From a virus, in the IMG/VR virus record IMGVR_UViG_3300034031_000013, positions 1-64,000 of that record: a stretch of 64,000 nucleotides of DNA, one strand, 5' to 3'. The position numbers and the translations under genes were made by a program. Numbering within the stretch: position 1 is the stretch's first letter; each line of letters opens with the position of its first letter. A model generated the notes under the pieces. That model searched no databases and had not been told where the DNA came from. It saw only the letters and a program-made list of their open reading frames with translations. Below are positions 2,974 to 42,409 of the stretch, one piece after another.

Positions 2974-3333
2974 TTAATCTCTTTTGTTTGTAAGTAAATT
3001 AAATAGCTTCTCTTTATCTGCTTTGAGTTCTTCTATTAATTGATTCTTACTATCTATCAATTGATCTTTAGTATTTAATATTTCCTGAACAGCCGGTGTA
3101 AACCCCATTTCAACTGGCGCAGGTTCAATAAGGAGCGCAAGATCAATGTTTAACTTTGTCTTTACATTCTCTATCATATCCAAGCTAAGTTTATCTCTAC
3201 CACACCAAGCAGTAAGCGTTTGGCGGCTTATTCCTAAACTCTTTGCGGCATCTTCCATTCTTAACCCATTGTTTTGCAAAGCTTGTTTTAAAATAATTCC
3301 CTTGATTTTCAGCATGTTATGTATTTGTGACAA
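2974..3333 (-). CDS. XRE-family HTH repressor (CI-like) with C-terminal coiled coil
   Basis: HTH pattern LRMEDAAKSLGISRQTLTAW; heptad repeats KDQLIDSKNQLIEELK; divergent from the early operon. True start may be 3315. Confidence 0.8.
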   Translation of the reverse strand: MSQIHNMLKIKGIILKQALQNNGLRMEDAAKSLGISRQTLTAWCGRDKLSLDMIENVKTKLNIDLALLIEPAPVEMGFTPAVQEILNTKDQLIDSKNQLIEELKADKEKLFNLLTNKRD

Positions 3334-3350
3334 AAATAACTATTTATTTA

Positions 3351-3382
3351 CTTGACAGATGTAAACATTTACTTTACATTTG
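3351..3382 (+). promoter_or_regulatory. Early rightward promoter (Bacteroidota sigma-A type) with an operator-like palindrome
   Basis: TTG at ~3352 and TACATTTG (TAnnTTTG) at 3375-3382; palindrome GTAAACATTTAC at 3361-3372 lies between them. Confidence 0.6.
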
Positions 3383-3605
3383 TTTTGTCATTAGGAATTA
3401 ACGACTTCACAAAAGTACAACTTTTAATCAAATAACCAAACAAGATGAAAACAGTAGCACAGATAGCATTAAATGTACAATCACTACAATATTTAAAACT
3501 ATTTGTAACAATTTGTAAATAACTCTTGTATTAATAAATAATTAGTTACACATTTGCTTTACAATAACCAACAATAACATTACAACATTTAAAAGACTTG
3601 CAAAC

Positions 3606-4214
3606 ATGAAAACAACAATCACTTTAACAGACGAGAAACTTCAAGACATCTACACAGATGAACAATTTAGAAACCAAGTAGCGAACGCACACAGTTGCCT
3701 TGATTCAAATCACAATTTCAAACACAAGCAAACCTGCTCTTATCCTACTACATATATAGTAACAGAGGAACAAATTGAATTAGCCAAAGTAGAGAAATTA
3801 AGAGCCAAAGAGCAATTCATTAAAGACCACGAAAACGCTTTAATCTTTATCGGCATGGGCATGACTTATGAGCCGACGGAGGGCAATGATGTAGGAAACT
3901 ACAGAGTAAGAACACAATTCACTAACCCAAATGGCAGAACCTTCTTTATAGAGGTTTGCGGAGGCAGCAACGATTACAAATCTCATGTAACATACTCGAT
4001 TGATGTTGATTTACAAAAGAGAAGAGAAAGCGAAAAACCATATATACAAGACTACTACAACTATAACGGCTTAGAAAGAAACGCTAACCCGATATATACA
4101 AAAGAAAGCTTATTAAGCCTTGTAAATCGTCAATTCGACTGCAATTTCTCTGAAATTATAATAGATAACTACAATCTATCGCCGGACGATATCACCTGCA
4201 AAAGCCCTAATTAA
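3606..4214 (+). CDS. Early hypothetical protein
   Basis: 202 aa ORF preceded by AAAAGACTTGCA (3591-3602). Confidence 0.75.
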   Translation: MKTTITLTDEKLQDIYTDEQFRNQVANAHSCLDSNHNFKHKQTCSYPTTYIVTEEQIELAKVEKLRAKEQFIKDHENALIFIGMGMTYEPTEGNDVGNYRVRTQFTNPNGRTFFIEVCGGSNDYKSHVTYSIDVDLQKRRESEKPYIQDYYNYNGLERNANPIYTKESLLSLVNRQFDCNFSEIIIDNYNLSPDDITCKSPN

Positions 4215-4247
4215 TCAAATATTAGCCACTACTAAAAGACTTGCACC

Positions 4248-4490
4248 ATGAACTGGAATAACATTGACTTAAAATCTAATTACGAGGCTTCACAAAACAT
4301 ACTAGAGCCTTTAAGCTTCGACATTCTCTTACTAGAAATACACTGCAATGCAAGAGAGATAAACGAGGCAACAGTTACCGCACAATTCGAAGAAGATTTA
4401 AGAAGCAAGATAGCGTCAGCGCGGGAAATATTCAAAGCCAACCTTGTAAATATTGTAAACCACGCTAAGGAAGAAAGGGCAAAACCATGA
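4248..4490 (+). CDS. Early hypothetical protein
   Basis: 80 aa ORF preceded by AAAAGACTTGCA (4234-4245). Confidence 0.7.
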   Translation: MNWNNIDLKSNYEASQNILEPLSFDILLLEIHCNAREINEATVTAQFEEDLRSKIASAREIFKANLVNIVNHAKEERAKP

Positions 4491-4577
4491 AAATCATAAA
4501 AGCCCTTGCATGGATATGCGCAGTATTCCTGCTTATCCGACAGCTAATGAGTAAAGAATAAACAAATGGTTAGTTGA

Positions 4578-4632
4578 TGCCTGATTGACGACAGGACTTG
4601 AGAAAGTCAGAGGCTCGTAACCTCGTCAGGCA
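4578..4632 (+). ncRNA. Minimal tRNA-like RNA (acceptor stem, hairpin and T-like arm; no D arm)
   Basis: TGCCTGA/TCAGGCA 7-bp stem, GACTT-GAGA-AAGTC hairpin, GAGG-CTCGTAA-CCTC arm with a 7-nt loop. Confidence 0.45.
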
Positions 4633-4874
4633 CTAAGTGAAACAGCAAAGAGAGGGAATAAGCCGTTTGCCTCTGAAAATAAAGCTAAAGTAAAAGACCA
4701 ATCGAAAGTGATTGTAGGGTATATGCTTTAACACCCGAAACAAAGGTTAAGCCGTCCAGCAGACTGAAAGAGTTCAGGAATTTAAAAGAGCCTGATTTAA
4801 TTACTGCATCATAATCGGAACGAAACAACCCCTCAAGCTTGAAATAGTGCTACGGGCATAAGTTAAAAGACTAT

Positions 4875-4928
4875 ACGTCTATAGCTCAATGCTATACTGA
4901 TGAGGCCAAAGGGAAGAGGCCGAAACGT
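4875..4928 (+). ncRNA. Type III hammerhead ribozyme, predicted cleavage after C4879 (GUC)
   Basis: ACG-UC / stem I UAUAGC-UCAAU-GCUAUA / CUGAUGA core (4897-4903) / stem II GGCC-loop-GGCC / GAAA (4922-4925) / CGU; all core nucleotides present. Confidence 0.92.
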
Positions 4929-4954
4929 TTAACTAATTAAAAGACTTGCAAATT

Positions 4955-5320
4955 ATGGGGACTTTAAAAACATTGGACTTACCTAACCACATTCAAGAAC
5001 TTACCCTTTGCGATAAGGATAATTTAAGTTTCGATTATCAAAACAATAGTCACTATTGGATGACAGAAACAGAGGAAGAGTATAAAAAGGTACTGTCTAA
5101 AATAGACAAGTTGAAGATGGAAAATAAAACATACCTAATATATGCATGGTATGATATTTCCTCATTCGATTATTGGAAACGAGAAAGAGATACCAATTAC
5201 ATCCAATTAACGGTAGTTATTAAAAAACCAATTCTCACCAACAAACAGATATACAGATTAGAAAACGACCTAAATAAATTAGACACAAAAGCGTGTATAA
5301 TCCTTTCGGACATAAACTAG
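4955..5320 (+). CDS. Early hypothetical protein
   Basis: ATG 4955 preferred over track TTG 4946 because it follows the AAAAGACTTGCA motif (4939-4950). Confidence 0.7.
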   Translation: MGTLKTLDLPNHIQELTLCDKDNLSFDYQNNSHYWMTETEEEYKKVLSKIDKLKMENKTYLIYAWYDISSFDYWKRERDTNYIQLTVVIKKPILTNKQIYRLENDLNKLDTKACIILSDIN

Positions 5321-5371
5321 AATTAACCCCTATGAATATTAACACGCCTTAAACCACTAAAAAAGACTTGC

Positions 5372-5626
5372 ATGAAAAAGATCATCATCACATTATCAAT
5401 TGTATTTAGTGCCTTTCTAGTACAGGCACAGACAGCAAAGAAAGACCCTACAGGTAATTACATAGAGGTAACCAAAGAAAGCACCGCAAAATTAACGGAT
5501 AAAACCTTTACCACCTTAAAAGGCGAAGTTTTTAAGGTCTACGAAACGGACAAAGGGAGGCTATTTGTAAAGCGCAAGAGTGCCAAGACTGGCAAATCTT
5601 ACAATCAATATCTAAAAGTTAATTAG
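5372..5626 (+). CDS. Small secreted protein
   Basis: Signal peptide MKKIIITLSIVFSAFLVQA; motif at 5361-5372 abuts the ATG. Confidence 0.7.
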   Translation: MKKIIITLSIVFSAFLVQAQTAKKDPTGNYIEVTKESTAKLTDKTFTTLKGEVFKVYETDKGRLFVKRKSAKTGKSYNQYLKVN

Positions 5627-5637
5627 GAGGCTGAAAG

Positions 5638-7294
5638 ATGGAAAATAAGCCACTTACAAAAAGCCAAGCCATTCAAGCCTGTAAAAAGGAGCTAAGAGAG
5701 TGGATAATGGTTAAACGCCTATATCATTTAAGGATAGACGAAATTAACGCCTGTACGGTACGAGTAAGCGCAGTACATGACGGAGTTTATTACAGTAGAC
5801 AAGCAAAGTTTAACACCAATGAGCCATTTTAAAATATGCTTTCTAATTGGTCACAATTGGAAAGGCTTGCCAGGGTATTTAGATATATCAAATTTAGTTT
5901 ATAAAAAGAAATTTTGCAAACGATGTTTAGCAACCAAATGAAACTCTTTCTCCCCCTCCTATTAGCCTTTTTAATAGGCGTTACACTAGGCTTGATACTA
6001 GGAACAAGGAAACCAAAGCTAAACTACTTACAGCCTCAAAACTGCATCGCTCACCCTCCTATATTCAGGGCATGAAAGAGTATCAAAGACAGCTAAGAGA
6101 GGGAGGGGTTAAAGCATTGCTAATCAAGTTAGACGTTAAAGAAAAGCAGGAACGCTACGAGGAATGTGAGGAAATAGTTCAGGCTATCAGAGAGTTTAAC
6201 CAAGCGAATGAAAAGAACTATCCTACCCGATTAACAACGGATTTAAAAAAGCAATTACAATTAACATGAATAAAGAAACAAACTTCATAGGCTATTCCAA
6301 TGGAGTACCCTATGATATACTTGATATAAGGCACGATAAGGAGAATATCGGGTTAATACGTGTATTTGGATTTGATGCGCCTGTATGGTGCTTATTTGAT
6401 CGGATAACGCAAAGGAGTTCAATTAATGGAAAGTAAGATATGTATTCGCTTTTAACAATCATAGATGCGCGTATTCAAGCGTACGACATAAACCTTACCC
6501 AATGCGAAAATAACCTTGAAGCTGAATATTGGAGAGGCAGGTTAGCGGAAGCAATGGAACTATTACAGGAAGTGTTAAACATGGCAGAGGCAGACAGTGA
6601 CGAAAATGATGATTTTGAACCTTATCTCGGTCAGGATTAATGGAAACACGCCAAATAACAACCATCCGCAACGCCCTTAACAGACGCAAGGAGATAAGAC
6701 AAGGGCTAAAGTGTACTAACATAGCCTATGACCTTTGGATAGCTAGTTTAAGCTATGAAACAGGGCTAACAGTAGAATTTATAATTGATAATCTGGAAAT
6801 AATTAAGGAGCTATGAAAGAACTAAAAACCACCATAGAGAATACAGGACTTGTAAACAGGATAGATGACTTAATCAACCAATGGACTTGCCCTGATATAG
6901 ATAAGTATGCAGACGGTTCATACTCCCTTTATCTTTCCTTTACAGAACTATCAGCAAAAGACATCTCTAAAGAGATAGTAGAGTTAATGGTAGAGTTTAT
7001 CATGGCTACAGATTCACGAAACTACAGTAGAAGAGTATACGAAGCCTCTGTAAATCATTTTTTGAAAGAACGATATAAAGAACCCAAGCCATGACCACAA
7101 TCCCAAACCAAATCATTCAATCAGCCTCCCTTATAGCAAGAGAGGTGTACAGCGATTTAAAGAACCTAGGACGAGTTACAGACTACATTCAAGAGAATAG
7201 TCACACAGCAGATTTTGAACTGTCTGACGGCTTCCGAATGAGGGCTATCGAGAAGAAGAACGAGTTCTACTATAATATTTTCAGAGCAAGTTAA
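5638..7294 (+). other. Run of small early hypothetical ORFs (5638-5832, 6072-6269, 6440-6640, 6813-7094, 7091-7294 and shorter ones)
   Basis: Tightly packed co-oriented ORFs with overlapping start/stop codons. Confidence 0.6.
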
Positions 7295-7299
7295 AATAT

Positions 7300-7463
7300 T
7301 AAATACTTCCTGCTTGAAGTAAGATCGGTGATACTAATATATCCGATGAAAGACGCAGAATAAAACTGATGGAGGCTGCGATTCAGAGTATCATATTCCA
7401 AACGCTTTTACAGAGAGAGACACGGCTACTGACCCGAACATTCCTAGTGACAGGAAGTATTTA
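7300..7463 (+). ncRNA. Candidate structured ncRNA (~164 nt) with predicted pseudoknot
   Basis: 13-bp terminal inverted repeat TAAATACTTCCTG/CAGGAAGTATTTA; internal hairpins; loop TGATACT complementary to AGTATCA; strand assumed from operon. Confidence 0.5.
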
Positions 7464-7469
7464 TCATAT

Positions 7470-7539
7470 CTGCCTTTAGTTTAAGCAAAACAACCCTTGC
7501 AAGTGGGGAGATGGAGGTTCGAATCCTTAAGGCAGACCA
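7470..7539 (+). tRNA. Degenerate tRNA-like gene (TGC/GCA in loop, anticodon stem broken, encoded CCA)
   Basis: CTGCCTT/AAGGCAG acceptor, TA, GTTT/AAAC D stem, GGTTCGAATCC T arm, ACCA end. Confidence 0.6.
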
Positions 7540-7647
7540 ATGTGCGCACAATCGTTCTTTTTAACCATCCCAATTTAATCAACTGTTAATTTTTTAAACA
7601 CTTCTTAAATTGTATCTACAAATCTAATGTTCCTGACGAAAGAACAC

Positions 7648-7676
7648 GCCCGTATCTGCACTGTACGGGCTTTTTT
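7648..7676 (+). terminator. Intrinsic terminator
   Basis: GCCCGTA...TACGGGC followed by TTTTTT. Confidence 0.7.
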
Positions 7677-7816
7677 ATTAACCAAGATGCTAATTAAGCT
7701 AGTTTAACATGAACAGCCACAGCCTGCGCGCTGACCTTAGTAGTGCCTATCTAACAGACTGCAATAATTCTGGGGCGTGAAGAGTAAGAGGTGAGATGCC
7801 TCATTAGAATAGTTGA

Positions 7817-8125: not shown

Positions 8126-8953
8126 ATGAAAATATTTGAAACCGTATCATTCCATATTGTGAAGCCTTGCAACATGAAATGTAAATTCTGTTATGCCACA
8201 TTCGAAGATATGCACGTAGGCGCACAGATGTCACTTGAACACGCCTGTACTGTAATAACCAAGTTGTATTTATCGGGAGTTCAGAAGATAACATTTGCAG
8301 GTGGTGAGCCATTGCTGTACAAGCACATAGACGACTGTATAAGCTTCTCGAAAGGGCTAGGCATGACAACTAGCATAATAACAAATGGTAGCTTAATAAC
8401 CCACCAATGGCTTGTCAAAATGCAAGGAAAACTTGATTGGATAGGTATATCGGTTGATAGTTTAGACCCGCGCACCAATGATTTGATTGGTAGGCGAACT
8501 AAAATGAAAATAGACTACCACGCCCTAGTTAATAATATAAACTTCTACGGATTTAAGCTTAAAATAAATACAGTTGTCAATTCCTTTAACAAGGACGAGG
8601 AAATGAACGAGTTCTTGAATATCGCCAATCCTAGTAGGTGGAAAGTATTTCAAGCACTAAGAGTTGAAGGGCAAAATGATTCTCAATTCGACGAAGTGAA
8701 AGTATCAGATGATGAGTTTGAAGCATTCTTAGAACGACATTCAAGCCAAGTATCATTAGTCCCAGAGAGCAACGAATCAATGACCGCTAGTTACCTTTTA
8801 ATTGACCCATTAGGCAGGTTATTTGAAAATAGCTTAGGCTCTCATACTTATTCAGATTCATTAATTAACAATAATATAGAACACTGCTTATCGCAAATAA
8901 GCCTTGACAGGGATATGTTTCTCAAAAGAGGCGGAGTTTACGAATGGGCTTAA
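8126..8953 (+). CDS. Prokaryotic viperin (pVip, RSAD2-like radical SAM ddhNTP synthase)
   Basis: FHIVKPCNMKCKFC (CxxxCxxC), FAGGEP, SIITNGS, WIGISVDS, KINTVV, RWKVFQ, ESNESMTASYLLIDPLGR and C-terminal FLKRGGVYEW, all viperin-family motifs. Confidence 0.92.
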   Translation: MKIFETVSFHIVKPCNMKCKFCYATFEDMHVGAQMSLEHACTVITKLYLSGVQKITFAGGEPLLYKHIDDCISFSKGLGMTTSIITNGSLITHQWLVKMQGKLDWIGISVDSLDPRTNDLIGRRTKMKIDYHALVNNINFYGFKLKINTVVNSFNKDEEMNEFLNIANPSRWKVFQALRVEGQNDSQFDEVKVSDDEFEAFLERHSSQVSLVPESNESMTASYLLIDPLGRLFENSLGSHTYSDSLINNNIEHCLSQISLDRDMFLKRGGVYEWA

Positions 8954-12493: not shown

Positions 12494-12564
12494 TGGGGGA
12501 TAGTTTAATTAATAGAACGTTGGCTTCATGCCATCAGATGCAGGTTTGAATCCTGCTCCCTCAA
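12494..12564 (+). tRNA. Degenerate tRNA-like gene (CAT or TCA in loop, ambiguous anticodon arm)
   Basis: TGGGGGA/TCCCTCA acceptor, TA-GTTT...GAAC D arm, GCAGG-TTTGAAT-CCTGC T arm. Confidence 0.6.
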
Positions 12565-42252: not shown

Positions 42253-42409
42253 GACTTCGTGGTTATTATACAACAAAGATAAAAACATTGTATATAAGTT
42301 GTACAATATATTTACAAATTGTTATAAAATAAAAAAAGGATTCAAATTAATGAACCCCTTTTGCCGGCTGTGCTGTCTCGACAATAGCACAGCTCTAATA
42401 TATAAAAAA

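Follow-up and report, generated by a model that had tools for sequence, protein, structure and literature searches.

The rightward early operon of this phage ends in a gene derived from a tRNA, and the anticodon arm of its RNA indicates that it is almost certainly not a normal decoder. The reading that we favour, with about even confidence, is that the gene yields a processed, non-decoding tRNA-like RNA, either a module or a relic, and that the match between its anticodon loop and a tag repeated before four early genes is coincidental. The window referred to below is the whole stretch of DNA that was analysed (64,000 nt), that is, bases 1-64000 of a 75,857-bp IMG/VR record (IMGVR_UViG_3300034031_000013, hereafter G000) that carries 127-bp direct terminal repeats.

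The last gene of the early operon

The phage has a G+C content of about 40%; its terminase, portal and tail genes lie on the minus strand, and an integrase is also encoded. Several metagenome runs from biocrust and soil contain near-identical DNA at low depth. Of 70 genes, 10 have a Shine-Dalgarno motif in the start region (background 8.5%), and the start regions are rich in A from −16 to −8 and carry a purine at −3. Translation initiation in the Bacteroidota is known to follow such a pattern. Since Shine-Dalgarno motifs are lacking and the leaders are A-rich, we read the host as Bacteroidota-type. The rightward early operon comprises the ORFs from 3606 to 7294, then the tRNA-like gene, which starts 175 nt past the end of the last early ORF (7294), and then the terminator that closes it. 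The region of about 164 nt upstream of the gene (7295-7469) has a fold that could not be told apart from those of its shuffles (z −1.6). The features of this part of the genome are the following.

4872..4931, plus strand: match to the type III hammerhead ribozyme (cmscan, 42.9 bits, E 3.6e-7, all core boxes)
7470..7540, plus strand: tRNA-like gene (ARAGORN; Rfam RF00005; cloverleaf fold)
7470-7476 / 7530-7536, plus strand: acceptor stem, 7 of 7 pairs
7479-7491, plus strand: D arm, 4-bp stem and 5-nt loop AAGCA without GG
7494-7508, plus strand: anticodon arm, three G-C pairs and U.G
7497..7504, plus strand: loop UUGCAAGU, 8 nt if C7496-G7505 closes it, 7 nt (UGCAAGU) if U7497.G7505 closes it
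7514-7528, plus strand: T arm, 4-bp stem and canonical loop UUCGAAU
7537-7540, plus strand: A73 and encoded CCA, read from the sequence
7648..7677, plus strand: strong intrinsic terminator, 8-bp stem and T run (terminator scan), 108 nt past the CCA

The first-pass annotation had placed a tRNA-shaped element here, and two programs agree. ARAGORN places a tRNA with the anticodon caa ('Leu-CAA') at 7469-7538, and the Rfam tRNA model (RF00005) matches 7470-7536 over its full length (model positions 1-71) with 31.9 bits (E 0.009 for the window), above the curated cut-off of 29 bits. The acceptor, D and T arms and the CCA can be read from the sequence, as had been reported; all four helices are intact and U8 is present. 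The anticodon stem had been described as not pairing canonically. It does fail in the Ala (UGC) and Cys (GCA) registers, but the minimum-energy fold contains a CCC(U)/(G)GGG helix, and the arm is reduced rather than absent. The full cloverleaf reaches −17.2 kcal/mol against −17.6 for the minimum-energy fold, a gap of 0.4, and cloverleaves with the 7-nt or the 8-nt loop are isoenergetic (−17.2 and −17.3 kcal/mol). A canonical anticodon arm has a 5-bp stem, a 7-nt loop, U33 and a purine at position 37. Here, the best register has four pairs (one of them U.G), an A.A mismatch and G33; the U33 register has a 3-bp stem and an 8-nt loop; and Infernal's alignment deletes position 31 and marks two non-standard pairs. 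The elbow (G18G19 with T54-Psi55-C56) is also incomplete, the T loop being present and the D loop having no GG.

We then asked whether such an RNA could decode. An odd but working decoder would either read UUG with the 7-nt loop and G33 or use its expanded loop, with GCA plus an extra base, for +1 frameshifting or quadruplet reading. Loops of 8 nt are a hallmark of classical frameshift suppressor tRNAs, and decoding would also be consistent with the score over the Rfam cut-off, the anticodon given by ARAGORN, the encoded CCA, the canonical T loop and the existence of other odd-loop phage tRNAs (a second one at 12494 and one with a 6-nt loop in L006). However, each register has its own defect: CAA brings G33 and G37, both wrong for a UUG reader, GCA requires an 8-nt loop (in Infernal's alignment), and UGC leaves two of five stem pairs. 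According to the established identity rules, Ala, Cys and Leu were all rejected, with G3-C70 in place of the G3.U70 of Ala, A73 wrong for Cys, and none of the long variable arm found in Leu. The D loop without GG and the T stem of just 4 bp also argue against decoding. We found no gene needing a +1 shift at a matching quadruplet (TTGC, TGCA, CTTG or GCAA joining two long frames), since such sites gave only ordinary gene junctions, and the usage of TTG, TGC and GCA codons in the phage is ordinary. A literature search on expanded anticodon loops and on hammerhead or tRNA-like links in phages returned nothing specific; quadruplet decoding as such has been reviewed (PMC9094753). Altogether, we consider a working decoder quite unlikely.

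The two other odd-loop tRNAs deserve a description of their own. The second tRNA-like gene of the window (12494-12564, plus strand, 49.3 bits) has the anticodon UCA, a loop of just 5 nt (UUCAU) if C32 and G38 pair, U37, a D loop without GG and no encoded CCA; TGA is an ordinary stop codon in this phage (18 of 92 genes). Its CUUCAUG loop complements CAUGAA(G), the commonest start context, present at 15 of 111 ORFs, among them three of the four that carry the tag, and this is probably a coincidence. The tRNA at L006:11303-11373 (plus strand, 50.4 bits) has the 6-nt anticodon loop UGCUAA, to which ARAGORN assigns no anticodon.

An anticodon arm that fits no decoding geometry, together with a D loop without GG, leads us to the non-decoding reading. 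As the last element of the rightward early operon, the tRNA-like RNA would be cut out of the early transcript, RNase P making its 5' end and trimming bringing its 3' end to the CCA. We take such cutting to be the likeliest course, since the 7-bp acceptor stem stacked on the T arm, the canonical T loop and the ACCA end are all kept. The RNA may be a module that serves processing or stability at the operon's 3' end, or it may be a tRNA on its way out. The hammerhead match, which ends 7 nt 5' of one of the tag copies described below, scores below the cut-off of 48.5 bits. A hammerhead in the early transcript makes RNA processing a theme of the early operon, and RNA cutting seems to be part of its expression. 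This picture would accommodate an RNase P substrate of tRNA shape at the operon's 3' end.

Several further observations concern the early region. An ORF-free block of 300 nt lies upstream of the hammerhead match. Between the tRNA-like gene and the terminator lies a 37-nt stretch (7608-7644) that is all that certain contigs from three other soil and biocrust runs, otherwise unlike the phage, have in common with it. An intact viperin-like radical SAM gene with a CxxxCxxC motif is found at 8126-8953 (plus strand); its relatives are named RSAD2 by JGI, and homologues with 57-72% identity occur in otherwise unrelated phage contigs of 27-40% G+C. Finally, a promoter- or operator-like repeat, ACAATTTGTAAATA..TCTTG..TATTA with TTGTA repeats, is located ahead of the rightward early operon (3495-3530), in the divergent 68.7-kb region (G000 68660-68715) and before an 82-aa HTH gene (67100-67165), with TAnnTTTG-type −7 boxes nearby.

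The start tag and the anticodon loop

Four early genes (ORFs 3606, 4248, 4955 and 5372) are preceded by exact copies of a 12-nt tag, AAAAGACTTGCA, which ends 3, 2, 4 and −1 nt before the respective ATG and whose flanks are not conserved.

3591..3602, plus strand: tag copy 1, 3 nt before ATG 3606 (202-aa ORF); 8-nt pairing with the loop
4234..4245, plus strand: tag copy 2, 2 nt before ATG 4248 (80-aa ORF); 7-nt pairing with the loop
4939..4950, plus strand: tag copy 3, 4 nt before ATG 4955 and 7 nt past the hammerhead match; 8-nt pairing with the loop
5361..5372, plus strand: tag copy 4, overlapping ATG 5372 (84-aa secreted-looking protein); 7-nt pairing with the loop

The 10-mer core of the tag, AAGACTTGCA, has six copies in the genome, all on the plus strand whatever the local direction of transcription. 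Two of them lie outside the window (64-75.9 kb), at 67221 and 72975, both on the plus strand; the sixth copy (G000 72975-72984, L057:8975-8984) is inside a minus-strand 165-aa gene. A repeated asymmetric motif in one orientation at most 8 nt before starts, here as four exact 12-mers, recalls the start-associated sequence (SAS) of Cluster K mycobacteriophages. The SAS is an asymmetric, phage-private motif of 12-13 nt in a single orientation, whose 10-20 copies end a few nucleotides before the start codons of some non-structural genes; its function and its partner ('either RNA or protein') have been unexplained since 2011, an RNA partner having been considered (PMC3203893).

Two simple explanations of the tag were rejected. 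The UUG inside it is no alternative start codon, as it shares the frame of the ATG in just one copy out of four. As for a ribosomal partner, 16S rRNA presumably offers an 8-nt complement to the tag, UGCAAGUC near position 55, but base pairing occupies this segment in the mature ribosome. Another word linked to starts, ATAACCAC, was seen 0-7 nt ahead of at least five other ATGs on both strands (8118 and 8955 in the window, G000 70989, and minus-strand starts near 42266 and 68637). The related CCACTA(C) immediately precedes tag copies 2 and 4 and is also found in the loop of a hairpin at 67.2 kb.

The complementarity between loop and tag that first drew attention to this gene was confirmed: TTGCAAGT at 7497-7504 and ACTTGCAA, which occurs at 3596 and 4944, are exact reverse complements, and the match extends over 7 nt at 4239 and 5366. 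The loop thus complements ACUUGCAA exactly in tag copies 1 and 3. Computed opening costs are 0.1-0.6 kcal/mol for the loop and 0.8-2.3 for the targets, with a duplex energy of −9.6 to −10.8 kcal/mol, and in these terms the pairing appears physically feasible. It takes in seven of the twelve invariant bases of the tag, five (AAAAG) staying unpaired, and the eighth pair involves a base that is not invariant. As the TTGCAA core is palindromic, the loop region also reproduces the tag sequence in sense orientation (CUUGCA or CUUGCAA); the palindrome CTTGCAAG at 7496-7503 overlaps the loop.

The first-pass annotation had cautioned that a match of 7-8 nt could be due to chance, and the statistics are indeed borderline. 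The loop 8-mer is found three times in the window, with 3.1 expected, and by permutation a complementary 8-mer anywhere in the intergenic DNA has p = 0.16. Among 12,690 intergenic 7-mer windows, 1.45% complement a 7-mer common to at least four start regions, which gives p of about 0.03 when the loop's two 7-mers are considered, or about 0.06 if both tRNA-like genes are counted. Elsewhere in the genome, in late coding regions, the 31-nt anticodon region has complements of 10-11 nt that are due to chance. These complements, the borderline statistics and a better complement of the tag at 67221 speak for coincidence. On the other side, the match coincides exactly with the loop that is most exposed, behind a CUUG (YUNR-like) turn, and involves the start regions of four genes from the operon to which the tRNA-like gene belongs, with p of about 0.03-0.06. 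We conclude that the complementarity of 7-8 nt is most likely a coincidence; in that case, which we think likelier, the gene is one more non-decoding tRNA look-alike carried by phages.

The opposite proposal, already made in the first-pass annotation, is that of an antisense regulator of the four early genes. The tRNA-like RNA, once released by RNase P, would use its U-turn loop to pair with ACUUGCA(A) right before the four starts and would block or modulate translation. By analogy with the C4 RNA of P1/P7 this would be a delayed negative feedback, to which the minus-strand 3'UTR element at 67.2 kb might contribute. One part of the proposal stands: the RNA is tRNA-derived and very probably no normal decoder, its loop being useless for that purpose, it is co-transcribed with the tagged genes, and its open loop could form a duplex of 8 bp (7 bp) at low opening cost and with the duplex energy given above. 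The exactness of the 8-nt (7-nt) complement, the empirical p of about 0.03-0.06 and the terminator-linked anti-tag RNAs of two other phages (below) are also consistent with it, and an RNA partner has been considered for the published SAS (PMC3203893). However, what links loop and tag is a match of just 7-8 nt that leaves the invariant AAAAG unpaired while pairing a variable base, and the palindromic core produces a same-sense match as well. No match to the C4 RNA family (RF01695) was obtained by cmscan at the gathering cut-off over the whole window or with E up to 10 over 3300-7800, which returned just the tRNA, the hammerhead and noise. Moreover, tag and RNA are absent from all relatives found, and the complement of 10-11 nt at 67221-67231 is the stronger partner. 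We therefore regard the antisense regulator as unlikely.

The wider idea, a circuit in which a tRNA-scaffolded loop docks on AAGACUUGCA at four early starts and sets their translation, as the 67.2-kb seed might too, seems to us similarly improbable. If such an RNA circuit on a private tag were true, it would provide a partner for the long-unexplained SAS in a host lineage that does not use Shine-Dalgarno motifs, and independent versions of it would exist in phage G003 as two terminator-linked anti-start RNAs, one of which is a tRNA trailer. Likewise, if the loop does pair with the tag, it would be a natural tRNA-scaffolded antisense regulator and a first mechanistic handle on the SAS (PMC3203893).

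The same-sense identity opens another reading, in which the loop displays the tag's own sequence in an anticodon-loop frame and acts as a mimic or decoy. The protein titrated in this way could be one that recognises the tag in mRNA or DNA, or else a host enzyme directed against anticodon loops. CUUGCAA has the form of a textbook anticodon loop (C32 U33 UGC A37 A38), and the six AAGACTTGCA copies on one DNA strand fit a protein-bound DNA site as well as an RNA site. Nevertheless, no candidate binding protein was identified, the identity of 6-7 nt that stems from the palindromic core is statistically as weak as the antisense match, and the best-paired fold has only UUGCAAG(U) in the loop. We hold a mimic or decoy to be very unlikely, and we retain the non-decoding RNA with a coincidental match.

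Complements of start tags at 67.2 kb and in other phages

The better complement of the tag is located outside the window, in a minus-strand 3'UTR, where 67221-67231 offers 10-11 nt.

G000 67194-67231 (L057:3194-3231), minus strand, outside the window: 3'UTR element

The genes around 67.2 kb run on the minus strand. About 80 nt separate the minus-strand RNA UUGCAAGUCUU from the stop codon of the 190-aa gene upstream, and 2 nt from the terminator-like 10-bp hairpin downstream, which is followed by GUUUUAU; a promoter-like TATATTTG box for the next gene is found past the hairpin. UUGCAAGUCUU pairs over 11 nt with tag copies 1 and 3 and over 10 nt with copies 2 and 4, the computed duplex energy being −14.9 to −15.9 kcal/mol and the seed opening cost 2.8, and this segment ranked top in an unbiased 9-mer test. 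Its layout is that of a putative 3'UTR-derived small RNA. Two caveats apply: the plus strand of the site resembles a fifth tag, followed 5 nt on by an ATG and a 16-codon frame, and the minus-strand seed can form a weak hairpin.

We searched for relatives in which loop and tag could be compared. In a phage collection, megablast found no near relative, and blastn in distant mode gave just generic tRNA similarity, the best match being a Felix O1-like tRNA-Thr (E 0.01). Exact-pattern scans of viral, genome and metagenome contigs with the 3' half, or with the D arm and T loop, gave no second copy of the RNA. Among 5.8 billion proteins, no relative of the viperin-like protein exceeds 72% identity, and the portal has one match at 70% in viral contigs and none in genomes. 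The nearest relatives are about 70% identical at the protein level, and those found have no tRNA at the matching position, no homologous RNA and no tag. The biocrust and soil DNA runs carry the same sequence with zero variants; since they are identical to the phage, they give no population signal. Among the sequencing runs listed as containing the sequence, there was no RNA run.

Three comparison phages (G001-G003) were reached through the viperin gene alone; the 20-kb loci around other viperin genes contained too few genes to define tags. G001 is the only phage that shares structural genes (25-52% identity) and is a distant true relative. About 1 kb from its viperin gene (L012:1501-1606, minus strand), it encodes an RNA of tRNA shape (26.7 bits, fold z −3.1) that has a T arm and an acceptor stem of 8 bp and is followed by a terminator. 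The central domain of this RNA departs from the canonical form and is enlarged, and we found no recurrent target of its loop. G003 (IMGVR_UViG_3300000156_000113) has a start tag of its own, (ACU)AAACU-AUG, and two small-RNA-like elements in which a common seed, UUUUCAUAGUUUA, precedes a terminator hairpin (L009:1444-1497 and L035:12010-12075, both on the minus strand). These elements complement (ACU)AAACUAUGAAA over 9-14 nt at ten start regions, with a permutation p of 0.009 for the 11-mer and a rank in the top two of about 16,000 windows. One of them is the 3' trailer of a good tRNA-Arg(TCT), 8 nt past its CCA; no relatives of this tRNA and trailer were found. Finally, the start tag of G002 (IMGVR_UViG_3300022930_000002) is AAAGCTAAA(A). 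Between convergent genes, this phage has a terminator (L030:8855-8886, plus strand) with an unusually large loop of 16 nt that holds UUUUAGCUUU, a 10-nt complement of its own tag AAAGCUAAAA (five start regions).

The presence of anti-tag RNAs in phages that share the viperin gene makes RNA control of start tags plausible in general, and as a class, judged from these sequences, such control is credible. The cases of G003 and G002 point to seeds close to terminators, not to anticodon loops. Therefore, if the loop match is a coincidence, the better lead is the minus-strand 3'UTR element at 67.2 kb together with the anti-start RNAs of G003 and G002, which are statistically stronger.

Comparison with known systems

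The tRNA-like gene shares with phage-encoded tRNAs (RF00005) the cloverleaf, the 7-bp acceptor stem, the D stem, the UUCGAAU loop, the discriminator base, the CCA and a score above the family cut-off. It differs from them in its anticodon arm of three G-C pairs and U.G, with G33 or an 8-nt loop, in its 5-nt D loop without G18G19, in its 4-bp T stem and in an identity set that fits no amino acid. The likeness to frameshift suppressors of the sufB2 type lies in a loop that may have 8 nt, in which U33 is kept and an additional base stands 3' of the anticodon; in contrast to these suppressors, there is no matching recoding site in the phage genome, and the alternative fold with a 7-nt loop is isoenergetic.

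The C4 RNA of P1/P7 and the CI RNA of P4 are processed by RNase P, share a transcript with their targets and mask ribosome-binding-site sequences by means of short loops. By analogy, the tRNA-like RNA as proposed would be an RNase P-processed RNA, co-transcribed with its targets, that presents a short loop to ribosome-binding sites. It differs from C4 in that it does not match the Rfam sequence and structure model and in that a single complementary loop of 7-8 nt replaces two cooperating loops and their two boxes. Moreover, the putative targets are four and dispersed, whereas C4 acts on one operon leader, and the pairing is a predicted one.

With the Cluster K SAS, the tag has in common its position a few nucleotides before starts, its asymmetry and its single orientation. 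However, its sequence is different and is not a variant of the Shine-Dalgarno motif, in a phage that uses A-rich leaders without Shine-Dalgarno motifs; it has four start-linked copies instead of 10-20, and it is absent from the relatives found.

Bacteria also produce small RNAs from 3'UTRs and tRNA trailers, such as 3'ETS-leuZ and CpxQ. In the 67.2-kb element and in the two G003 elements, one of which lies behind a tRNA, the seed is placed just upstream of a terminator hairpin, as in RNAs of this type, whereas in the tRNA-like gene the complementary bases are inside the anticodon loop.
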